The notes beneath the pieces were generated by a model. It saw only the letters and a program-made list of their open reading frames with translations. It had not been told where the DNA came from and ran no database searches. A program made the position numbers and the translations under genes. This document shows positions 1 to 47,901 of a stretch of DNA of 64,000 nt, piece by piece (position 1 is the first letter of the stretch; the number at the start of each line of letters is the position of its first letter). This DNA is from Escherichia phage vB_EcoM-E33. The DNA is taken from the sequence record OL780484.1, one strand, 5' to 3'.

Positions 1-115
1 CGGTTGGCGCTGGTTTGGTCGTGTGTCTCGTAATACAGACCGTGTTAAAAAGATTACAAATGAAATCCGCGTTAATGCTCAAGTATATCTGGAATTCCCT
101 ATGGAGGGCTGGTAA
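1..115 (+). CDS. 3' end of an upstream gene (partial, hypothetical)
   Basis: Open frame from window edge to TAA at 113-115, overlapping the next ATG (TAATG). Confidence 0.3.
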   Translation, partial: GWRWFGRVSRNTDRVKKITNEIRVNAQVYLEFPMEGW

Positions 116-16310: not shown

Positions 16311-16526
16311 ATGGAAATTATTGGTTTTATTCTTGCTTATCTTGTGATAGGATTTATTACTGCTTTGATTGCGCATAAAACAGGCGCGTGGAACCCGGTT
16401 AAAATTGAATCAAGCTATGATGCGGTATTCATTACATTTGTATGGCCAGTATTTTGCTTTGCCTGGTTATGTATGCTAATTCTGTGGCCTATCGCTAAAC
16501 TCTATGAAAAATTATTTGGACTCTGA
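16311..16526 (+). CDS. small membrane protein
   Basis: 71 aa, two hydrophobic helices. Confidence 0.45.
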   Translation: MEIIGFILAYLVIGFITALIAHKTGAWNPVKIESSYDAVFITFVWPVFCFAWLCMLILWPIAKLYEKLFGL

Positions 16527-16527
16527 T

Positions 16528-17397
16528 ATGAACATTAAAACACGTAAAGAATATTCCATCTATGACCATGACACGACTCGTCGTATCGCTATCGATCGGC
16601 TGGCAGACTTTGGCCATATTTGTAATGGTAATTATACTTATGGTGTAGGTCGTAAAGGGACTTATATTAGTTCTTTGAACGATTATTGCCGTTGCCCTGC
16701 TCATTTATTTGGTGCAACACTGCGAGCTAATATCAAAGACCTCTTGGCTACCGCAGGACGTATTTCTACGGTTCCTGTCAATATCAAGAATATTAATTTT
16801 ACGGCTCGTAACCTAGTCATTAATATTCTGCCTGACGGTATTCAAGTTCGTTTCCGTCCTACCTCAAAAGGTAATAAGGCCCTTCGTGAAGCATTCGAAA
16901 CCTTATTCAGAGAGGCAATGACCCGTATTAAGGCAGTAGAATCATATAAAGTTACAACCGATGAATATGCTGATTGTTTTGAGCGGGCTGATGCAGTGTA
17001 TTTTAATGTTAAACTAACTCGTGAATATCTTTTGTCTTATGCCCCTTATCAATCCCAACAAAAGGACCCACAAATGGAACGTCGTATCTCTGCAGTATCA
17101 TGTGACAGTGTAGGCCAGTATGCGGCCTATGACAAATTCAAAACCACTGCTGTACCAAGCCCATTCAATTCCGAACCGTATCATTGGAAAATTAAACCCG
17201 AGAATTCTTTGGTGGTTACTAACCCTACGATGAAACCTATCGAGAAGTATCATGAGGACCACCTCCAGGAATCAATCCACCGTTTAAACGGCCAGATCGA
17301 AGATGAGAAAAAGAGTATCCAAGACGTATTGATTCGCATCAAGAACATGGAACTCCAGCGTGACAAGCTCCGCGCGGCAGTATTAGCTCTAAAATAA
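16528..17397 (+). CDS. hypothetical protein with helical C-terminal tail
   Basis: Start at ATG 16528 just after upstream TGA (alternative 16504). Confidence 0.45.
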   Translation: MNIKTRKEYSIYDHDTTRRIAIDRLADFGHICNGNYTYGVGRKGTYISSLNDYCRCPAHLFGATLRANIKDLLATAGRISTVPVNIKNINFTARNLVINILPDGIQVRFRPTSKGNKALREAFETLFREAMTRIKAVESYKVTTDEYADCFERADAVYFNVKLTREYLLSYAPYQSQQKDPQMERRISAVSCDSVGQYAAYDKFKTTAVPSPFNSEPYHWKIKPENSLVVTNPTMKPIEKYHEDHLQESIHRLNGQIEDEKKSIQDVLIRIKNMELQRDKLRAAVLALK

Positions 17398-20070: not shown

Positions 20071-21144
20071 ATGCAAGATTTCGGACATTGGGCGGTATTT
20101 GAAGAAACCGATATTAAAAACCATATTGGATTTGTATACGTAATCACTTTTGAAGATGGCAAAAAATATGTGGGTGCTAAAAAGATTTGGAAACGAATTA
20201 AAGCTGCACCTTGCACATTTAAACGCGGCCCTAAAAAAGGATTTGAAGAATCTGATTGGAAAACCTATACCTCATCATCTAATGAACTAAACGCAATGAT
20301 AGAAAAGGGTATAAGTCCTAAAGAGTACCTTATTGTAGGATGGTATCCTACTTGGGGTAAAACTCTTATGGCAGAAATGGAAATGCAATTAGCCAATGAT
20401 GTTTTACGAGACCCTATGTGGCTTAACAAGCAAATTGGCGGACATTTCAACCCTAACTGCTTTGACGATTTAACCGAAGATGATATTGCAAGATGGATGG
20501 AATTTGATAAAGGGAACGAACATGTTTCCTGGCCTATGATGTACAAAATCGGTCAGAAAACCAAATATGTTAAACCTGACGAAGTTGGCAAGTATATTAA
20601 ATCTGGGTGGCAATTTGGTCGTTCTAAAACAGAAAAACATTCTGTTACCTATAATTGCTCTAAATTTACTATATGGGACTATCAAGAAAATAAAGCAGTG
20701 GAAGTTCTAAATCAAAATGAGTTTGCTCGTAATAATGATTTAAGTAGCAACCATCTAACTAGACTACTTCAAGGAACTCTCGACCTTATTAAAGATCGCT
20801 GGGGACTTCCACCAGATATTGCTCGTCAGCGTTATAAATTTCAGGACGTTTCTTCAGGAACAAAATTTTTATCTAATTCTGAGTTAGAAGAATTTTACGG
20901 TATGACTCGCGGTCAGGCTAACAAAGCCGTTAAAGATGGAAGAGCCGTTAAATTGGTAGTCGAAAGCAAAGAAGACCACATTAAAAAACTTGGCTCTATC
21001 GAATTGGTAAAAACCGAAAAGACAAAAGTTACGTCTCAAGTAATGCTTAACAGTTTTAAAGATATAGTTAATCCTATGACCACTGCCGAAAAATCAGAAA
21101 TGATTGAATGGTTGGAAAGTTATATAACTTATTTGAAATCTTAA
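20071..21144 (+). CDS. GIY-YIG-like (Seg-type) putative homing endonuclease
   Basis: GFVYVITFEDGKKYVGAKK...WKR has GIY-x10-YIG spacing followed by basic residues; 357 aa. Confidence 0.4.
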   Translation: MQDFGHWAVFEETDIKNHIGFVYVITFEDGKKYVGAKKIWKRIKAAPCTFKRGPKKGFEESDWKTYTSSSNELNAMIEKGISPKEYLIVGWYPTWGKTLMAEMEMQLANDVLRDPMWLNKQIGGHFNPNCFDDLTEDDIARWMEFDKGNEHVSWPMMYKIGQKTKYVKPDEVGKYIKSGWQFGRSKTEKHSVTYNCSKFTIWDYQENKAVEVLNQNEFARNNDLSSNHLTRLLQGTLDLIKDRWGLPPDIARQRYKFQDVSSGTKFLSNSELEEFYGMTRGQANKAVKDGRAVKLVVESKEDHIKKLGSIELVKTEKTKVTSQVMLNSFKDIVNPMTTAEKSEMIEWLESYITYLKS

Positions 21145-35726: not shown

Positions 35727-36227
35727 ATGAAAAAGTTAATTATCGCAATGAGTATGCTCCTATCAGGTTGCGCGGTCCAATATGGTGATACAGTTTCGGC
35801 CGATGAAGTTGGTAAAGCTCGTATCGCAGCTGAACAGAAACAATTCGATGGCGAAATGAAATTCCGTGCAGGTTCTGGACTTGTGTACACCCGAGCTAAT
35901 AATCAATGCGGTAATAACTGTGCAAAATATGCTCAACAAGAAATCGAATTCCAACGTGAACAAGAGTCCAAGCGTGAAGCGGTACTAGCCAAACACCAGG
36001 CAGAAATGAAGCGTCAAGATGATTTGTACAAAAAGCAGAAACTGTATGCGATGTGCGTAAACCATATCAATCTACAGATTTCCATCCACGAGGCTCGTTA
36101 TTACGAAATGCTCGAAACCGAGAGCTTCGGTAAAGCTCGTGATTATAAGAAACAAATCGATAAGCTCAAGACCAAAGTACCGGCGGCAATAGAACAGTGT
36201 ATTGAAATCGGTAAAGATAAGATTTAA
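35727..36227 (+). CDS. putative lipoprotein
   Basis: Signal peptide with lipobox LLSGC; 166 aa. Confidence 0.5.
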   Translation: MKKLIIAMSMLLSGCAVQYGDTVSADEVGKARIAAEQKQFDGEMKFRAGSGLVYTRANNQCGNNCAKYAQQEIEFQREQESKREAVLAKHQAEMKRQDDLYKKQKLYAMCVNHINLQISIHEARYYEMLETESFGKARDYKKQIDKLKTKVPAAIEQCIEIGKDKI

Positions 36228-36287
36228 GCAATACCAATTTATTAAAAATAGTGTATAATGTACCTACATTCACTTGAGGAACAGATA

Positions 36288-37961
36288 ATGAAAAAGGTTG
36301 TTATTTTAGGCGCGGGTCTTGGCTCACGGTTGTATCCAATTACCAACGAAATCCCGAAGGTACTGGTTAACTACAAACAACATACTGTATTAAAACATTT
36401 GTATGATTTGTATAGTAATCAATCAGATGAAATTATTCTGGTTATTCACAGCAAATTTAACGACCTCGTTAAAGGCTATATTAAATCCATTAACATGATT
36501 AATAGTGATAAGCCTAAATTCACTATTCGTAACGTTGATGTTGCCAATGGTTCGGCTCATGCTATCGATTGCATTGCCGAAGATATCATTGGGCACAATG
36601 TCTTGTTTAACTGGTGTGATATTATTCCTGAAGGTCATAAAGTTGAGTGGGATAACGACTACTGTTATACCTATGGGACTGACTGTCGTTTTACATTTGA
36701 AGAACCGTACTTGCGTGAAATTGGTACCGGTGGTGGCGTAGTTGGCTTGTATCAGGTGGCTAATTGGACAGGTTTCGACCGTTCTAATTATGGTGAAGAC
36801 CTTGCTGACAACCTGGATTCAATGGTCCATTTGACTGAACGTAAGTTAGACTTTGTAGTTGATGTTGGTGACAAACTGAAACTGGCTAAGGCGCATGAAG
36901 ATTCTGAAATTAACCGTGAATTTAATAAATTAGAGTTCACCGAGAATCTAGCTATTAAAGTACCAACTAACGAATTGGGTAAAGAAATCCAATCTAAAGA
37001 AATCAATTGGTATAATTCTATTGATTCCGAATTCGTTCCTAGCATTGTAGACTTTGCTCCAGGCGAATTCATTAAAATGGAACGTATCTTTGGTCGAACC
37101 ATGGCAGATGCCTACCGGTTTATGTCTAAAGAAACTAAAGTCCTAATGGTTTATAAGGTTATTAGTGCATTACGTTCGTTCGGTGGAACTATCGATAATC
37201 CGTCCGATGAGCAATGGTATTCTGATGTTAAGAAAGAAGTATTGGACAAGGTCCTTATTCGTAATGCTTCTATTGCCGGATTGATTGAAGGCTTTGCTCC
37301 ACAGGGTATTACCCATGTTAACGACTTCAAGGTAGGCGACCCAGAAAAACTTCTTCGTCACGCCTTAGAAATTCTGTCTGAACATAAAGAACCGTACCAA
37401 CTTATTCATGGCGACCCGCACTACAGTAATATTATGTTGTCGGACGAAGGTAATATTAAAATCATCGACCCACGTGGTTATTTTGGTAATAGTTCTAAAG
37501 GCCCTGCGATTTATGATGAAGCTAAGGTGCTTTATTCTATCGATGGTTATGACAAATTTAACTCTGACCCTCTATGGGGTGGCTTAACTCGTAACGGAAC
37601 TCGTGTATTCGTTGATATTGAAAAGGTTATGCCTTTAGATGATATTCCGATGTGTACATTTAAGCACAAGCTCTGGATTGCTGTTATCTGGATGGCATTG
37701 GCAGGTTACTTTAAAAATAACCCTCTGAAAGCTCTGGGCGCTTATTACAATGGGCTATATCAACTGAGTGTGCTGCTGAAGCGGCATCCTCGTAAGCGTA
37801 AGCTTATCACAGGTGAATTCGTTGATGAAGTTCGCGACCCTATCACGGCTCAAATTATCACTCGTTGTCCTGATAAGTGGGTTTTGCTTGACCAGGAAAC
37901 TGGTGTAAAATATAAACCTACAGGTTCTACCGAACTCCACAAACAATGGAAGAAAATTTAA
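36288..37961 (+). CDS. bifunctional sugar-phosphate nucleotidyltransferase / kinase-like protein
   Basis: N-term ILGAGLGSRL (G-x-G-x-R nucleotidyltransferase motif); C-term HGDPHYSNIML...IIDPRG (APH/choline-kinase-like catalytic loop); start at ATG 36288 after GAGGA. Confidence 0.55.
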   Translation: MKKVVILGAGLGSRLYPITNEIPKVLVNYKQHTVLKHLYDLYSNQSDEIILVIHSKFNDLVKGYIKSINMINSDKPKFTIRNVDVANGSAHAIDCIAEDIIGHNVLFNWCDIIPEGHKVEWDNDYCYTYGTDCRFTFEEPYLREIGTGGGVVGLYQVANWTGFDRSNYGEDLADNLDSMVHLTERKLDFVVDVGDKLKLAKAHEDSEINREFNKLEFTENLAIKVPTNELGKEIQSKEINWYNSIDSEFVPSIVDFAPGEFIKMERIFGRTMADAYRFMSKETKVLMVYKVISALRSFGGTIDNPSDEQWYSDVKKEVLDKVLIRNASIAGLIEGFAPQGITHVNDFKVGDPEKLLRHALEILSEHKEPYQLIHGDPHYSNIMLSDEGNIKIIDPRGYFGNSSKGPAIYDEAKVLYSIDGYDKFNSDPLWGGLTRNGTRVFVDIEKVMPLDDIPMCTFKHKLWIAVIWMALAGYFKNNPLKALGAYYNGLYQLSVLLKRHPRKRKLITGEFVDEVRDPITAQIITRCPDKWVLLDQETGVKYKPTGSTELHKQWKKI

Positions 37962-38320
37962 TGCATCTGTGTTTTGATATCGATAATACCATTACTCACT
38001 GGCAAGATGACCGTGATTACGAAAACTTTAAACCGGACACCGAAATGGTGTCCATGATTAATAAGCTTTATGATGAAGGGTACGAGATTACCTTGTTCAC
38101 TGCCCGTGGTATGACTTCATGCGGCCCGGGTCGAATCTTGGTTGAAGTAGTTCCTGCATTAGTTAAGAACCTTGAAAAGATTGGATTGAAATATCACAAT
38201 CTGCTTACACATAAGCCGAGTTATACTTTTATCATCGATGACCGAGCAATCCGTCCTGACCACTTTAAAGAAATGGTTCGTGAAGGAACTCTTGAAACCT
38301 ATAAGGCATATCATCCGTGA
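37961..38320 (+). CDS. HAD-superfamily phosphatase-like protein
   Basis: Motif I FDIDNTIT (DxDxT), LFTARG, IIDDR; TAATG overlap with upstream gene. Confidence 0.5.
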   Translation: MHLCFDIDNTITHWQDDRDYENFKPDTEMVSMINKLYDEGYEITLFTARGMTSCGPGRILVEVVPALVKNLEKIGLKYHNLLTHKPSYTFIIDDRAIRPDHFKEMVREGTLETYKAYHP

Positions 38321-38853
38321 AACCAAAAATCATTGTTATCGACGGCCCGGATAATTCCGGGAAGTCTACTTTAATTGAATCACTTTTATCTGATAAGAAA
38401 TATCGTCTTATTGATTTCCCTAAAAAGATTAATGGCAAATGCATTTCATTAGGGACCGATAATGACAAGGCTTTAGTCGAGACGTTGTATAAGTTTTTAG
38501 ACCCTAATTTCGTTTACATCCTTGACCGTGGTTATCCAAGTAATATTGTTTACTCGGGATTCCTTCGCGGTGAAATGGACCCTTATGTAGAACTGGAAGA
38601 TTGGAAAAGGTTTAAATCTGAATTCAATATTATTGAGGTTATTTTAACCCGTAATCCACTGGATAAAGACTTTGAAGATGACCTTATTAAATTAACCAAA
38701 GATGAGTTCAACCTAACTATCCGCCAATACGAAACATGTTTTGAAAACGTGTTTAAAATCTTAAATCACGACGGCCATAATAACTTGCTTAACGTCGATA
38801 TGGTAGAATTAAAACGTCTGAATGAATATATTGAAAATAAGGTGAATAAATGA
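38317..38853 (+). CDS. thymidylate-kinase-like P-loop nucleotide kinase
   Basis: IVIDGPDNSGKSTL Walker A, RLIDFP and LDRGYPSNIVYSGF resemble TMPK motifs. Confidence 0.5.
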   Translation: MKPKIIVIDGPDNSGKSTLIESLLSDKKYRLIDFPKKINGKCISLGTDNDKALVETLYKFLDPNFVYILDRGYPSNIVYSGFLRGEMDPYVELEDWKRFKSEFNIIEVILTRNPLDKDFEDDLIKLTKDEFNLTIRQYETCFENVFKILNHDGHNNLLNVDMVELKRLNEYIENKVNK

Positions 38854-39548
38854 AACACATTACCGCTGTTAGTTTTGAAAACGCGTTTAAGCAAATGAAC
38901 GAAGAAATCCTGGAAGCTCCACAGTTTGCAGTTGATTCTCGTATCGGCCGTTGTTATGAAATTGGTTCTGCTTCGGTAGAAGTACTGGATGCAAGCACCT
39001 ATAAATTCACCGACCCTCGTATTAATCGTATCAACTATGATTATGCCGAATCTTTCTGGAAGTTTATGATTTCTGGTGGTACTGACGCCGCCGAAGCATT
39101 TAAGGAATACCCTAATGTTGCTAAGTTCATTGATAAGCCGAAAAGTGACGTATTGCCTGCAAACTTCAACACTTTCTATGGACCTAGAATTGTGGCCCAA
39201 CTCCCAGCCTTACTTAAAGAGCTTAAAGAGAAGCCTAACTCAAGACGAGTTGTGTTCCAAATTCTCCAAGAACAAGACCAAGCCCTCCTTGATTCTGACG
39301 AATCCTTAGAATATCCATGTACTGATTCAGTGACATATTATATTCGTGATGGACGTCTTTATGCACATACCCATATGCGTTCACAGAACTGTGCTATTGT
39401 TATGCAGCTGGATTTCTATCTGCAGGGTAAACTGATGGCCTTTATTGCTGAACAGTGTGGTGTTGGTCTGGGTACGTATTCCCATACTATGGTTAGTGCA
39501 CACGTATTTGAACGTGATTTTGACTACGTTCGAGGATTCCTGAAATGA
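38850..39548 (+). CDS. thymidylate-synthase-family pyrimidine hydroxymethylase (divergent gp42-like)
   Basis: KPNSRRVVF, catalytic-Cys motif YPCTDSVTYYIRD, MRSQN, SAHVF align to remembered T4 gp42 motifs; low overall identity. Confidence 0.5.
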   Translation: MKHITAVSFENAFKQMNEEILEAPQFAVDSRIGRCYEIGSASVEVLDASTYKFTDPRINRINYDYAESFWKFMISGGTDAAEAFKEYPNVAKFIDKPKSDVLPANFNTFYGPRIVAQLPALLKELKEKPNSRRVVFQILQEQDQALLDSDESLEYPCTDSVTYYIRDGRLYAHTHMRSQNCAIVMQLDFYLQGKLMAFIAEQCGVGLGTYSHTMVSAHVFERDFDYVRGFLK

Positions 39549-40438
39549 GTTTGTTTATCGTTCCTATTTTCAGTATGCGTAGTTACGAAACAGGTGAATA
39601 TGCCGTCCTTAAGGACGGTAATTTTCAACTCCATTTAAACCGTGCTTGCCAAGGTGATTATCTGGCTTATCCTAGAAATTCGAGCGATATCAAAGAATGC
39701 ATTGAATTATTTCCTGAACTGAATTTTGTACCTCTTTGGTATAAAGAAAATGCTTATGAAACTCGTAAACATTTTTGGTCTGAAAATGAGTTCGTTGTTG
39801 ATTCGTTAATCGAATACTATGACTGCTCAGGATTGGTAACCGATATCACAGGTTATGATGGCACTCAGACTGTACAATTCAACTTTAACATTACAATGGA
39901 CCCTGAAGTTCCTCGTTATTATATCGACGAGTTTATTGATACCGACGTGTCCTCAGTTGAACGTTCGATTTATACCACAGTCCTGAATCAATGCCAGAAA
40001 GACGTCCTGGTGTCACGAGGTGCGTCCTCTGATAAGATTTTTGTAGACCAAAAGGTAATTAATCCGGCAGTAATTGAGCGTTACTCTGAAGGCCTAGCGC
40101 CTATTAAAATTGATGGTATTTTCCATCCATTCCGTATCTCTGATAAATGTTATCAATTCGAAAGAGTTGTAGACCAAGCTGCGGCTGAAGGTTCTCGCCT
40201 TTATATCACCGATCCGAATGATTCATTTAAGCGTGAAGACTATCGTCCTGATGTAGAGATTATTAAATTCAAACCGAGTAAGGTTGAATATTATCAGATT
40301 CTGAAATCAAGACCTCATATCATTTATCATGAGAATCCCAGTTTAGTATTTCATCCTGGCCTGGCTGAATTCATTTATTTCGGTGCCCACATCCATTCTG
40401 AGCACGAAATGCCAAGTTATGAGGACGTGGTCCTTTAA
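39545..40438 (+). CDS. hypothetical protein (occupies T4 beta-glucosyltransferase slot)
   Basis: 297-aa ORF coupled to the upstream gene; no motif recognised. Confidence 0.45.
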   Translation: MSLFIVPIFSMRSYETGEYAVLKDGNFQLHLNRACQGDYLAYPRNSSDIKECIELFPELNFVPLWYKENAYETRKHFWSENEFVVDSLIEYYDCSGLVTDITGYDGTQTVQFNFNITMDPEVPRYYIDEFIDTDVSSVERSIYTTVLNQCQKDVLVSRGASSDKIFVDQKVINPAVIERYSEGLAPIKIDGIFHPFRISDKCYQFERVVDQAAAEGSRLYITDPNDSFKREDYRPDVEIIKFKPSKVEYYQILKSRPHIIYHENPSLVFHPGLAEFIYFGAHIHSEHEMPSYEDVVL

Positions 40439-40515
40439 CGCTGTAAATGTGAAGTGATATAATTACCCTATCTTAAAACGTGAGTAAAATATAATGATGC
40501 CTATGGAAAAATATA

Positions 40516-46718: not shown

Positions 46719-47375
46719 ATGAATTACGAAAAAATATACCAGGAATTAATATCTAAAGGAAAATTAAGAGGTTCTAAGCGGTCTTTATCATATTATACGG
46801 AAGAACACCATGTTATACCTAGATGTATGAATGGTTCTGATGATAAAAACAATTTAGTTGCTTTATTGCCAAGAGAACACTTTGTAGCTCATAGGCTTTT
46901 AACAAAAATATATCCCGAAGTAAAAGGTCTACATTATGCTGTTAATTTAATGAGATATAATAAAGGAGTTAAATTAACTAGTAGAACTATAGCCACGTTA
47001 AGAGAAAATAACGCTAAAGCATTTTCAGGAAAAAATAACCCGATGTTTGGTAAACCTTCCTGGATTAGAGGGATGAAAACTCCTGAAGAAACTAAAGCCA
47101 AAATGCGCCTGGCTCATAAAGATAAAATTATATCTGATGAAGCCAAGGCCAATATGAGTAAAGCTAGAAAAGGAAGATTTAGTGGTAAAGATTCCCCTAG
47201 ATATGGTTTGCCGAATCCTAGGCGTGGAGAAATATGGAATAGTTACGATATGCTTTACGAATTATGGGTTTACAATAATAAACCTAAACGCACCAAATTT
47301 AATAAAATAGCTGTTGATAATGGATATCCTGATATTTGTTATCGACGAATGATAGAAAACTTTAATAGGAAATAA
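46719..47375 (+). CDS. Mob-type HNH homing endonuclease
   Basis: HNH motif EEHHVIPRCMNGSDDKNNLVALLPREH; NUMOD3-like GKNNPMFGK; AT-rich; paralog of 11078-11842. Confidence 0.7.
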   Translation: MNYEKIYQELISKGKLRGSKRSLSYYTEEHHVIPRCMNGSDDKNNLVALLPREHFVAHRLLTKIYPEVKGLHYAVNLMRYNKGVKLTSRTIATLRENNAKAFSGKNNPMFGKPSWIRGMKTPEETKAKMRLAHKDKIISDEAKANMSKARKGRFSGKDSPRYGLPNPRRGEIWNSYDMLYELWVYNNKPKRTKFNKIAVDNGYPDICYRRMIENFNRK

Positions 47376-47379
47376 TATA

Positions 47380-47901
47380 ATGGCATTTTTTAACGAATGT
47401 AGTGGTTTGATTTCTGGTGTTGATAAAGCTGAGGAAGCTTATTTTAATGCTCTGATTCATGAAGATAAAGACCCTCTGCAGGTTATGCTTGATATGCAGA
47501 AATCATTACAGGTCCGTTTGGCTACTGAAAAATCTGAATTTAACTCTAACCCCGATGAACTGGCTACTGCAGGTCAAGTTGTCGATTGGCTTCGCAACCA
47601 GAAAGATTATATTGATGACGAATTCCGTGAACTGTTGACTTCTCTTGGTGGCATGAGTAATGGTGAGAAAGCCGCATCTAGCGTCTGGAAGCCTTGGAAA
47701 GCTCAGCACGGTGAATTCCGTAACCGTCGTATTGACGAACTCTCTCCTGAAGACCAGCTTGAAATTAAATTCGAGATGATTGATATTCTGCACTTTGTTC
47801 TGAATATGTTCCAAGGTCTTGGTCTGTCAGCCGAAGAAATCTTTAAGTTGTATTACCTGAAAAACGCTGAGAACTTTGCTCGTCAAGACCGAGGTTATTA
47901 A
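47380..47901 (+). CDS. 56: dCTP pyrophosphatase gp56 (MazG-like all-alpha NTP-PPase)
   Basis: 173 aa; DDEFRELL and EMIDILHFVL resemble MazG-type motifs; T4-like position next to 61. Confidence 0.6.
   Translation: MAFFNECSGLISGVDKAEEAYFNALIHEDKDPLQVMLDMQKSLQVRLATEKSEFNSNPDELATAGQVVDWLRNQKDYIDDEFRELLTSLGGMSNGEKAASSVWKPWKAQHGEFRNRRIDELSPEDQLEIKFEMIDILHFVLNMFQGLGLSAEEIFKLYYLKNAENFARQDRGY

Follow-up and report, generated by a model that had tools for sequence, protein, structure and literature searches.

The DNA of many T4-like phages carries arabinosyl-5-hydroxycytosine, a hypermodification recognised only lately, with a structure corrected in 2025-26. It shields them from type I CRISPR systems, restriction enzymes and the Brig1 glycosylase. 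Among the phages so protected are some that are candidates for therapy directed at E. coli, Klebsiella and Acinetobacter. The closest described pathways are those of phages RB69, DLP3 and HY126. As reported by Lee et al. (NAR 2026, PMC13326640), the ThyA homologues of all three were shown to hydroxylate dCMP, and the steps to UDP-arabinofuranose were shown for HY126 AfhE, whose activities include that of a UDP-arabinose pyrophosphorylase, and AfhF, which converts Araf-1,5-P2 to Araf-1-P. The same paper showed the 5hodCMP kinase step for RB69 gp159, reported that 5hodCTP is made and incorporated, and described the addition of second and third arabinoses on DNA in vitro. The second and third arabinosyltransferases, RB69 gp3, the HY126 glycosyltransferase (PDB 9iqz) and DLP3 gp76-77, act on an arabinose hydroxyl and not on the base; they are probably the 'Aat' of Mahler et al. 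2025. The family that concerns us was named "arabinosyltransferase 1" by Lee et al., the assignment being a prediction. In RB69 DNA, cytidine is described as completely replaced by mono- and poly-arabinosylated forms.

The window that we analysed is a 64,000-nucleotide stretch of Escherichia phage vB_EcoM-E33 (OL780484.1), a Dhakavirus that shares about 98% identity with phage QL01. An operon of five translationally coupled genes lies within it (Table 1). The last of these is the Dhakavirus copy of a phage enzyme family that was proposed in 2025-26 to attach the first arabinose to 5-hydroxycytosine and in this way to guard the phage DNA against host nucleases; it is a gene of a known kind. An earlier note on this DNA had called its product unknown, but the family already bears the predicted name given above. 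Dhakaviruses were placed in the syntenic arabinosylation group by synteny only (PMC13326640). Compared with the clusters of RB69 (gp46:47), DLP3 (gp79) and HY126 (299-aa protein), the Dhakavirus cluster is minimal, without isomerase, U32-like gene or gp3-type transferase; its kinase-like gene lies upstream of the transferase gene, whereas in the other clusters it lies downstream, and its activation enzyme is much more diverged. One sugar per base is expected here; RB69 has two and DLP3 three. Thanatos, which is described as mono-arabinosylated (PMC13326640), resembles the present phage in having a single GT-fold protein, TH1_063.

Table 1. Positions of the operon genes, associated signals and the dCTPase gene in the window
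Feature	Position	Strand	Basis
Bifunctional NTP-transferase and sugar kinase (AfhE / RB69 gp52:53 / TH1_060 type)	36288..37961	+	Pfam, PHROG, orthology
HAD-family sugar-phosphate phosphatase (AfhF / RB69 gp51 type)	37961..38320	+	Orthology, PHROG
Thymidylate-kinase-like P-loop nucleotide kinase (RB69 gp45 / TH1_064 type)	38317..38853	+	PHROG, orthology
ThyA homologue, 5-hydroxy-dCMP synthase type (RB69 gp48)	38850..39548	+	PDB, orthology, alignment
Predicted 5-hydroxycytosine O-arabinosyltransferase 1, 297-aa GT-B glycosyltransferase	39545..40438	+	RB69 gp46:47 / DLP3 gp79 / TH1_063 family, PHROG 3891
dCTPase (T4 gp56 type), dCMP supply and dCTP removal	47380..47901	+	Pfam dUTPase_2; QL01 'gp56 dCTPase' at equivalent position
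Candidate extended -10 element (TGTATAAT) of likely operon promoter	36252..36259	+	By eye
Shine-Dalgarno GAGGA of the transferase gene, within 3' end of preceding gene	39531..39535	+	Read from sequence
Promoter-like site TTAACG-17-TATAAT with TG	40435..40463	+	Consensus scan, 10/12 matches; consensus only

The transferase gene and its family

An ORF check confirmed the exact limits of the transferase gene, which runs from ATG to TAA over 297 codons. It follows directly on the gene of a ThyA homologue, with an overlap of 4 nt (ATGA) that includes the stop codon of the latter, and its ATG lies 9 nt downstream of the GAGGA. In a tblastn search of 50,697 phage records, homologues were found in 350; the family forms 117 clusters at 90% identity and has 238 representatives among 1.84 billion proteins. 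In our alignment of 227 members, some 17 positions show the same residue in 90% or more of the sequences. Because of these homologues and conserved positions, and of a confident AlphaFold2 model (see below), the ORF is a real gene and not a chance ORF.

The protein matches PHROG 3891 over residues 1-296 (E 4e-158). It is 66.7% identical to the HY126 299-aa protein, 68.7% to RB69 gp47, 64.0% to RB69 gp46 and 50.8% to Thanatos TH1_063, and is the orthologue of the HY126 protein, of RB69 gp47 and gp46 together, and of TH1_063. A Pfam search with the protein gave no match, no Pfam family was matched by 53 family members at E≤1, and searches of PDB sequences with the protein (phmmer) and the family profile (hmmsearch) were equally negative. 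One distant family member, P0251, had a sub-threshold match to Glyco_transf_4 (E 2e-4). The predicted first-sugar enzyme, which would catalyse the key step of the pathway, defines a sequence-orphan transferase family of about 240 representatives. Some 350 phage genomes label it 'hypothetical' and its neighbour 'dCMP hydroxymethylase' or 'thymidylate synthase'; both annotations can now be improved.

Fold and conserved residues

The AlphaFold2 model (mean pLDDT 95.1, pTM 0.89) has two Rossmann-like domains with an inter-domain cleft, and in fold searches of three libraries its best matches were GT-B/GT4-like. The KARL-1 orthologue compares to it with a TM of 0.95. We read the modelled protein as a very diverged two-domain GT-B glycosyltransferase. 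The earlier note, which had itself proposed a fold search on an AlphaFold model, had recognised no β-gt (GT-B) signature; this holds for the sequence, which matches nothing in Pfam or the PDB, but not for the fold.

The fold has a bearing on the possibility that the protein is the equivalent of T4 β-glucosyltransferase (β-gt), glucosylating hydroxymethylcytosine (hmC) in DNA from host UDP-glucose. Both proteins share GT-B, and both genes occupy the slot between the gene-42 homologue and uvsX. Yet the closest structural neighbour in the fold search is not β-gt, and comparison of the two sequences gave a best E of 12 in blastp and a probability of 0.2% in hhalign; neither β-gt (GT63) nor the T4 α-glucosyltransferase (GT72) is a sequence homologue. 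The T4 enzymes transfer to a 5-CH2OH group from host UDP-glucose, whereas the acceptor here would be a 5-OH, whose enol/phenol-like oxygen sits on the ring itself, and the donor a phage-made UDP-pentose. T4 β-gt is also basic (pI 9.05), the present protein acidic (pI 4.83). Three observations largely refute a β-gt equivalent, which we consider extremely improbable: the gene-42 homologue is of the N169 hydroxylase type, so that no hmC is expected; the transferase gene is coupled to a module devoted to pentose activation (for both see below); and in phage SP1 a genuine β-gt coexists with a member of the present family, both within the 42-to-uvsX interval.

Bacterial retaining GT4-type enzymes (sucrose-phosphate synthase 6kih, BshA 6n1x, PglA 8dqd, PimA 2gej, MshA 3c4q) are 8-11% identical to the protein and about 70-100 residues longer; unlike them, it has no Pfam GT4 match, E-x7-E motif or conserved Lys partner. 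That the canonical GT4 motifs are lacking is new here; together with the unmatched Pfam GT models, it counts against the pathway proposed below. When motifs are placed on the fold by predicted secondary structure, R197 (99% conserved) falls where the donor-diphosphate arginine is expected, after the first strand of the C-domain. K201, at the Lys place of R-x4-K, is lysine in only 45% of members, and K/R246 (95% basic) may substitute for it. H270 occurs in 226 of 227 members and position 275 is always acidic, giving H-x4-E in place of the GT4 E-x7-E; E263 is acidic in 87%, but lies 12 residues away.

All near-invariant residues (R12, D24, N26, R74, Q151, R197, D200, Y203, N225, H270, E275) are kept in the Dhakavirus protein, as they are in a family member from a jumbo-phage locus (L007). 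In contrast, the SP1 member, which stands beside a D169 hydroxymethylase, has lost R12, N26, R74, Q151, R197, Y203, K246 and H270. The intact catalytic signature tracks the N169-type ThyA. The coexistence of a degenerate paralogue with a true β-gt in Muldoonviruses is new here. We also considered whether net charge could tell a DNA acceptor from a nucleotide acceptor and rejected this criterion, as known DNA-acting phage transferases range from -7 to +6 and overlap the family.

The acceptor

The ThyA homologue matches three 2026 PDB entries (9iqu, 9iqc, 9ir2) with an E of 1.5e-125, but T4 dCMP hydroxymethylase (gp42, 1b49) with an E of only 5e-6. Its identity to the enzymes of HY126 and RB69 (gp48) is 79%, and it is nearly the same as the hydroxylase for which structure and biochemistry have been characterised. 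In a multiple alignment it shows the catalytic Cys157, N180 (E. coli D169N) and D188 (N177D), whereas T4 gp42 retains D169. PMC13326640 gives D169N, with activity, as diagnostic of 5-hydroxy-dCMP synthases. We therefore class the ThyA homologue, on its sequence, as a predicted 5-hydroxy-dCMP synthase and not a hydroxymethylase, which would make 5-hydroxycytosine (5hoC) the acceptor. The earlier note had assumed hmC and proposed an assay on hmC-containing DNA; with a neighbour of the 5-hydroxy-dCMP synthase type, that substrate would be the wrong one. We saw no further ThyA-like hydroxymethylase in the neighbourhood of the cluster, and the only other TS homologue of QL01 is annotated as td, dTMP synthase. 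The dCTPase encoded downstream belongs to the same cytosine-replacement pathway as the operon.

The sugar donor

The first protein of the operon has NTP_transferase (E 2.5e-8) and APH (E 9e-6) matches in Pfam and matches PHROG 4098 (E 5e-269). It is 43-44% identical over its full length to the HY126 562-aa protein and to TH1_060, with alignments that begin at residue 11 of the ORF-lister's 567-aa version (start 36258), and the QL01 annotation begins the gene at the position that corresponds to 36288; translation thus probably starts at the ATG at 36288 (557 aa). The HAD phosphatase shares 62% identity with its HY126 and RB69 (gp51) counterparts and matches PHROG 1238 (E 5e-41), its Pfam HAD matches being weak. 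Both proteins match UDP-arabinofuranose-making enzymes in sequence, and the fusion is a predicted UDP-arabinofuranose synthase. The kinase-like protein matches PHROG 761, 'thymidylate kinase' (E 9e-40), and is 37-45% identical to RB69 gp45, the HY126 kinase and TH1_064.

Among the 50,697 phage records, the genes of the module occur in 350, 371, 343 and 367, with matching per-genus counts; the kinase-like gene (343) has the same counts per genus as the transferase gene. In about 350 phages the latter co-occurs almost 1:1 with the sugar-activation, ThyA-homologue and kinase-like genes. The protein is very probably a transferase that decorates a modified cytosine with a sugar activated upstream: of the earlier proposal, a DNA-modifying transferase using a donor made by the upstream enzymes, this part is borne out by fold, co-occurrence and gene fusions (see below), and the hmC acceptor has to be given up. 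That it is a 5hoC pentosyltransferase, at whatever acceptor level, we consider likely.

In Dhakaviruses, and in those Klebsiella and Proteus phages that carry this form of the cluster, the pentose itself could differ from arabinose and derive for example from ribose-5-phosphate. This variant has no arabinose-5-phosphate isomerase, a gene carried by 270 other phages, and the divergence from Mosigvirus is uneven, with 43% identity for the activation enzyme and 37% for the kinase-like protein against 79% for the hydroxylase and 67% for the transferase. The missing isomerase and the 43% identity to the characterised activation enzyme also count against the arabinose pathway that we propose below. 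The gene order differs as well, and our literature search found no measured DNA modification for any Dhakavirus. However, E. coli makes its own arabinose-5-phosphate for Kdo synthesis (KdsD/GutQ), so the isomerase is dispensable. The transferase has kept all family-invariant residues, AfhF and the HAD phosphatase share 62% identity, and Dhakaviruses fall within the syntenic arabinosylation group (PMC13326640). A pentose other than arabinose is thus improbable.

A different role has been published for TH1_063, which is 51% identical to the Dhakavirus protein, of the same length and in the same slot. His-tagged TH1_063, given UTP and xylose-1-phosphate, yielded a UDP-xylose peak that was absent without enzyme, and was described as a UDP-xylose pyrophosphorylase (PMC12838424); on this precedent, the present protein would make a UDP-pentose from sugar-1-phosphate and UTP instead of transferring it. 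Its fold is GT-B, however, and not the GT-A-like fold of nucleotidyltransferases, and it has no NTP_transferase match, whereas the operon fusion already contains such a domain and has an HY126 orthologue described as a UDP-arabinose pyrophosphorylase (PMC13326640). The sole control in the TH1_063 assay was 'no enzyme', and the peak may stem from an E. coli pyrophosphorylase that came through the purification, or from a side reaction of a reverse or phosphorylase-like kind. Furthermore, phages with a single GT-fold protein (Thanatos, the X20/LC53 type, the present Dhakavirus) would be left with zero transferases. We regard a pyrophosphorylase as unlikely to be the physiological role of TH1_063, and very unlikely to be that of the Dhakavirus protein.

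Proposed pathway and number of sugars

In the pathway that we propose, the dCTPase would produce dCMP, which the flavin-dependent ThyA homologue would turn into 5-hydroxy-dCMP; a gp1-type dNMP kinase and host NDK would then yield 5hodCTP, used by the phage polymerase instead of dCTP. Host arabinose-5-phosphate (KdsD/GutQ), the presumed source since the phage has no isomerase, would receive a C1 phosphate and later a uridylyl group from the 557-aa fusion, and the HAD phosphatase would strip the 5-phosphate, the end product being UDP-arabinofuranose; these steps are transferred from HY126 AfhE and AfhF at 43% and 62% identity. The C-terminal Rossmann domain of the transferase would bind the UDP-sugar (candidate residues R197, D200, Y203, N225, H270 and acidic 275), the N-terminal domain would hold 5-hydroxycytosine (candidates R12, D24, N26, R74 and Q151), and arabinofuranose would move to O5 of the base. 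As acceptor, our best guess is 5hoC that replication has already built into the new DNA, which would follow the T-even paradigm.

The whole genome of QL01 contains no homologue of α-gt, β-gt, gp3-type transferase, arabinose-5-phosphate isomerase or U32-like protein. As a second transferase, the isomerase and the U32-like gene are missing, we predict mono-arabinosyl-5-hydroxycytosine made from host arabinose-5-phosphate as the product, and the protein is apparently the first and only glycosyltransferase of the pathway in this phage. The gp3-type enzymes, absent here, show no sequence or profile homology to it (blastp and hhalign with RB69 gp3), are longer (366 against 297 aa) and form a narrower family (5 clusters against 117; 212 phage records against 350). 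One transferase for one sugar has precedent in that LC53 is mono-arabinosylated and Bas46 di-arabinosylated. The Winklervirus X20 cluster likewise has a single transferase, and Serratia phages have no gp3 homologue. Mono-arabinosyl-5hoC should be proof against restriction enzymes and against some CRISPR systems.

Glycosylation of DNA or of the nucleotide

Two published results stand against this pathway. Single purified DLP3 transferases gave no product from 5hoC-DNA with either UDP-Araf or UDP-Arap (PMC13326640), and TH1_063 showed no transfer, although all acceptors offered lacked the 5-OH (PMC12838424). In addition, the second kinase of the cluster has no role in the scheme, given that a gp1-type kinase already handles 5hodCMP. 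It would gain one if the transferase arabinosylated free 5-hydroxy-dCMP, the kinase-like protein phosphorylated the resulting arabinosyl-5hodCMP, and the polymerase incorporated a glycosylated dCTP analogue. ThyA homologue, transferase and kinase would then form a three-step nucleotide line, the footprint of which could be seen in gene fusions.

Fusions of distant relatives of the transferase to a kinase-like protein, a KdsC-type phosphatase or an SIS-like domain are new here. The fusion to a kinase occurs in at least nine distant representatives, and the fused kinase-like domains are homologous to the operon kinase (hhalign 88.7%, E 2.5e-6); the match of the SIS-like domain is weak. The fusion partners were found by profile-profile and PDB-profile searches, single-sequence phmmer searches of the long family members with the operon kinase, HAD, ThyA and AfhE-like proteins having found nothing. 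A jumbo-phage contig also holds a ThyA - transferase - kinase triad with no sugar-activation genes nearby, and the kinase-like gene accompanies the transferase gene 1:1. Yet the transferase is also fused to the phosphatase of a non-adjacent step, and the fusions may mirror operon neighbourhood only.

Glycosylation before incorporation would have a rationale, as 5-hydroxycytosine left bare in DNA causes mutations and is attacked by the host's Endo III/VIII. The near-invariant N-domain arginines R12 and R74 could grip a 5'-phosphate, and the protein is strongly acidic (net charge -18.7), a weak argument as the DNA-acting T4 α-gt and Acinetobacter gp3-like enzymes are acidic too. The UDP-Araf that failed with the single DLP3 transferases worked with gp76+gp77, and Lee et al. 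cannot separate the nucleotide from the DNA level (PMC13326640). On the other hand, the phage DNA glycosylations characterised so far are all post-replicative, and DNA is what receives the second and third arabinoses (PMC13326640); since 5hodCTP is incorporated, an enzyme that acted on nucleotides alone should leave some 5hoC bare in the genome, and RB69 is not reported to contain any. We consider transfer to the free nucleotide possible but doubtful; if true, it would be the first pre-replicative nucleotide glycosylation in phage DNA hypermodification. Our full statement, that the enzyme arabinosylates 5hoC on DNA, with 'arabinose' and 'on DNA' both included, stands evenly balanced between right and wrong. 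The Dhakavirus cluster is the smallest complete version, with five coupled genes, one transferase and no isomerase, and for this reason the cleanest system for reconstituting the pathway; it could settle both the level of glycosylation and the role of the second kinase.

Operon layout and signals

The locus reads 43 - imm - 166aa - (operon ending in ThyA homologue - transferase) - uvsX, as compared with 43 - imm.1 - imm - 42 - β-gt - segA - uvsX in T4, so that the gene sits in the T4 β-gt slot as first noted. Its description as the last gene of a coupled operon is likewise right: the three upstream junctions overlap as well (~37961, 38317/38320 and 38850/38853), and a promoter-like site follows its stop, ahead of uvsX. 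By its sequence, this site would mark where the operon ends and the uvsX unit begins. No terminator was found after the transferase gene, the three terminator-like matches being fewer than expected from shuffling. At the other end of the operon, the candidate extended -10 element (TGTATAAT) was missed by the consensus scan because its -35 is poor; a Shine-Dalgarno sequence, GAGGAA, follows downstream at 36276-36281.

Gene, operon and genomic position

The gene of the 297-aa protein is real. Its reading frame runs from the ATG at 39545 to the TAA at 40438 on the plus strand (297 codons), as the earlier note had placed it, with a GAGGA Shine-Dalgarno sequence 9 nt 5' of the start codon, which shares the overlap ATGA with the stop codon of the gene before it. 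The family comprises 117 clusters at 90% identity, with 238 representatives among 1.84 billion proteins, and an alignment of 227 members has about 17 positions at which 90% or more of them agree. The upstream junctions within the operon are overlaps too, so that the five genes (36288-40438) constitute one translationally coupled unit; as had been claimed, the target gene is its last, with a promoter-like site between it and uvsX. The window comes from a T4-like phage of the genus Dhakavirus, ~98% identical to Escherichia phage QL01. Since the T4 order (43 - imm.1 - imm - 42 - beta-gt - segA - uvsX) places beta-gt between 42 and uvsX, describing the locus as the glucosyltransferase position was correct.

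In the first operon gene, homologues align from residue 11, the annotated QL01 start is the equivalent of ATG 36288, and this codon is preceded by a GAGGAA Shine-Dalgarno sequence; the product probably has 557 aa, not 567. The start chosen by the ORF lister, ATG 36258, falls within the -10 element.

Features discussed in the text (window positions unless a contig is named)
Feature	Location or members	Strand	Context or basis
Second 297-aa ORF	16504-17397	+	Pfam DUF7235, E 3e-121
SegE-like GIY-YIG ORF	20071-21144		QL01 alignment gap
166-aa ORF	35727-36227	+	between imm and operon
Extended -10, TGTATAAT	36252-36259		5' of first operon gene; by eye
Thymidylate-kinase-like gene	38317-38853	+	in operon
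Thymidylate-synthase (ThyA) homologue	38850-39548		directly 5' of target
Promoter-like site			after last operon gene, ahead of uvsX; consensus match
NUMOD3-motif ORF	46719-47375		homing-endonuclease-like
dCTPase gene	47367-47901		beside NUMOD3 ORF
HAD-GT fusions	P0131, P0144, P0151, P0155, P0167, P0175, P0190, P0210		KdsC-type phosphatase
GT-kinase fusions	P0197, P0207, P0218, P0223, P0229, P0241, P0247, P0249		thymidylate-kinase-like domain
Kinase-GT fusion	P0216		thymidylate-kinase-like domain
GT-SIS fusion	P0251		SIS-like isomerase domain, weak match
Flavodoxin_2 (NAD(P)H-dependent FMN reductase-like), jumbo phage	L007:6426-6932		two genes 5' of N169 ThyA homologue
Remote target-family member, SP1	L014:7001-7927		after D169 hydroxymethylase; HMM E 1e-25
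U32-like gene, RB69 (gp50)	L004:4493-5662	-
U32-like gene, HY126	L001:6845-8005
U32-like gene, X20	L015:6796-7965
U32-like gene, metagenomic phage contig	L008:9049-10125		adjoins family member L008:8001-9038

Fold, family and candidate active site

Neither the target protein nor any of 53 relatives has a Pfam family, phmmer and the family profile retrieved no PDB relative, and the sole label is PHROG 3891, "unknown function". The AlphaFold2 model (pLDDT 95.1, pTM 0.89) predicts a GT-B fold. The remark that no GT-B signature could be recognised thus held for the sequence (Pfam and PDB searches) but not for the modelled fold.

Direct comparisons gave 66.7% identity to the 299-aa protein of phage HY126, 68.7% and 64.0% to RB69 ORF047c and ORF046c, which represent a single gene divided through a sequencing error, and 50.8% to Thanatos TH1_063; by these comparisons the target is the orthologue of all of these.

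Across 227 members, R12, D24, N26, R74 and Q151 are near-invariant in the N-terminal half and R197, D200, Y203, N225 and H270 in the C-terminal half, where position 275 is always acidic. In GT-B enzymes the N-terminal half is the acceptor domain and the C-terminal half binds the donor; in GT4 enzymes the diphosphate-binding arginine sits after the first strand of the C-domain, a place that R197 would occupy. GT4 enzymes further have an E-x7-E motif and an Arg/Lys pair, whereas the target has H270-x4-E275 and a partner lysine position (K201) that is only 45% conserved. Departing from the first of these sequence-defining features and, less clearly, from the second, it resembles the GT4 type by fold only; it may work like such an enzyme, and we left it out of GT4. 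The assignments of residues to sites follow the predicted secondary structure and are putative.

Donor and acceptor

The first operon gene product combines an NTP_transferase with an APH-type kinase domain (Pfam) and aligns from end to end with HY126 AfhE and TH1_060 at 43-44% identity; the second, a HAD phosphatase, shares 62% of its residues with AfhF. In the account of He et al. 2026 relayed by PMC13326640, AfhE acts twice, first as a kinase on arabinose-5-P and later in the uridylylation of arabinose-1-P; AfhF takes off the 5-phosphate, and together they yield UDP-arabinofuranose.

The suggestion of hydroxymethylcytosine (hmC) as acceptor does not agree with the adjoining ThyA homologue, which matches the 2026 PDB entries 9iqu/9iqc/9ir2 with E 1.5e-125 but T4 dCMP hydroxymethylase with only E 5e-6, and shares 79% identity with the HY126 and RB69 gp48 enzymes. 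In a multiple alignment it carries the catalytic cysteine, N177D (cytosine specificity) and, decisively, D169N; the aspartate is retained in T4 gp42 and in E. coli ThyA. D169N is diagnostic of flavin-dependent 5-hydroxy-dCMP synthases, an activity demonstrated for RB69 gp48 and DLP3 gp80, including by 18O2 labelling (PMC13326640). The RB69 modification, originally reported as arabinosyl-hmC (PMC6024577), has since been revised: the arabinose is attached through an ether bond to 5-hydroxycytosine (5hoC). Judged by its neighbour's sequence, the target's acceptor should not be hmC.

Co-occurrence, fusions and genomic contexts

Phage records contain the transferase (350), ThyA homologue (371), kinase-like (343) and AfhE-like (367) genes with essentially identical per-genus counts (Escherichia 176 in all four; Acinetobacter 57, Shigella 15, Enterobacter 9, Proteus 7, Yersinia 6). 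Fusions occur among distant family members: in eight, the N-terminal part is a KdsC-type sugar-phosphate phosphatase (PDB matches reaching E 5e-13); at least nine contain a homologue of the cluster's kinase-like protein as a domain (hhalign 88.7%, E 2.5e-6); and one has a SIS-like domain (weak Pfam match, E 9e-5) with a sub-threshold Glyco_transf_4 match.

A 383-kb jumbo-phage contig has the order Flavodoxin_2 - x - ThyA homologue (N169) - transferase - kinase-like, and its transferase keeps every near-invariant residue. The Flavodoxin_2 gene is plausibly a dedicated flavin reductase for the hydroxylase; the window's operon contains no gene of this type.

Serratia phage SP1 (Muldoonvirus) offers a natural negative control, since its hydroxymethylase is of the genuine D169 type and shares 58% identity with T4 gp42. 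The family member next to it lacks R12, N26, R74, Q151, R197, Y203, K246 and H270 (substitutions include R12Q, R74V, Q151S, R197N, K246L and H270D) and is either a decaying relic or repurposed. Because this neighbour of a D169 enzyme has lost near-invariant residues, the intact catalytic signature tracks the 5-hydroxy pathway. Next come a gene annotated as alpha-GT and then a genuine beta-gt with 52% identity to that of T4. Since SP1 has both a family member and this counterpart of T4 beta-gt, beta-gt is a separate gene, non-orthologous to the target; a beta-gt-like hmC glucosyltransferase, which the T4 gene order might suggest, is effectively excluded.

Proposed activity and alternatives

We propose that the target would be a 5hoC O-arabinosyltransferase working on newly replicated DNA. 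It is probably the base-proximal pentosyltransferase; for the full statement of a 5hoC transferase, including both "on DNA" and "arabinose", we see about an even chance.

Besides the operon's thymidylate-kinase-like gene, the phage has a T4 gp1-type dNMP kinase, QL01_146; in RB69 the orthologue of this kinase already accepts 5hodCMP as substrate (PMC13326640). As the main alternative, the same chemistry could act on the free nucleotide, which we consider rather unlikely. For 5hodC to enter DNA, a gp1-type kinase and the hydroxylase are enough (PMC13326640), so that the cluster's second kinase is left without a step; that kinase nevertheless accompanies the transferase 1:1 across phages and recurs in fusions with it, and the DLP3 transferases gave a negative result when assayed on DNA (PMC13326640). 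Yet 5hodCTP is made and incorporated, later sugars go on at the DNA level (both PMC13326640), and RB69 DNA is reported to be fully glycosylated. Net charge does not separate DNA from nucleotide acceptors.

TH1_063 was published as a "UDP-xylose pyrophosphorylase" from one LC-MS assay (PMC12838424), and this annotation may spread to the family. For the target such an activity is highly improbable: it conflicts with the GT-B fold, a dedicated uridylyltransferase domain is already present, and the only control of the assay was "no enzyme". The acceptors in the TH1_063 transfer assays had no 5-hydroxyl group (PMC12838424).

The Dhakavirus variant of the cluster

Compared with HY126, RB69 and X20, the window's cluster lacks their arabinose-5-P isomerase and U32-peptidase-like gene and has its kinase-like gene upstream. 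Its AfhE-like (43%) and kinase-like (37%) proteins are far more diverged than the hydroxylase (79%) and transferase (67%). The isomerase occurs in 270 phage records; among phages with the module, it is missing from the 39 non-Mosigvirus phages of Escherichia and from those of Klebsiella and Proteus. That this isomerase-less variant transfers a different pentose seems improbable to us.

When the complete genome of QL01 was searched by local tblastn, neither T4 a-gt or b-gt, nor RB69 gp3 or the gp3-like proteins of Acinetobacter phages, nor the isomerase or the U32-like protein had a homologue there, and the classical a-gt (47..55) and gp3 (rIIA..39) sites hold just small ORFs. RB69 gp3 homologues are restricted to Mosigvirus, Acinetobacter phages and one Tegunavirus. 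Bas46, with two transferases, bears two arabinoses and LC53 one; with this precedent and a single transferase found, we predict mono-arabinosyl-5hoC, made from host arabinose-5-P, for the window's phage.

The Peptidase_U32-like gene, absent from the window, is a regular companion of the cluster in both Mosigvirus and Winklervirus; the metagenomic contig, where it adjoins the transferase, has no ThyA homologue nearby. RlhA, TrhP and UbiU/V, all of the U32 family, hydroxylate their substrates independently of oxygen; the product of RlhA is 5-hydroxycytidine in rRNA. By analogy with RlhA, the gene may be an anaerobic route to 5hoC that complements the O2-dependent ThyA-type enzyme; its label in PMC13326640 is just "sugar or heterocycle reductase".

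Relation to published work and other observations

Publications of 2025-26 already describe the family together with its position and proposed role, and include Dhakaviruses by synteny (PMC13326640); the target therefore adds a member, not a new system. In the literature surveyed, with He et al. 2026 and Mahler et al. 2025 outside it, we did not find the evidence from gene fusions, the degenerate paralogue in Muldoonvirus, the lack of canonical GT4 motifs, the minimal isomerase-less cluster inventory or the unassigned-kinase argument.

The second 297-aa ORF has the same length as the target, yet is unrelated. The N-terminus of the 166-aa ORF, MKKLIIAMSMLLSGC, resembles a lipoprotein signal; this ORF has no above-threshold Pfam family and no T4 counterpart at the same position. 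The NUMOD3-motif ORF is missing in QL01 (alignment gap), and the dCTPase gene beside it is 86.5% identical to QL01 versus 96-99% for the flanks, a pattern expected of homing-associated gene conversion. The SegE-like ORF likewise falls at a QL01 alignment gap.
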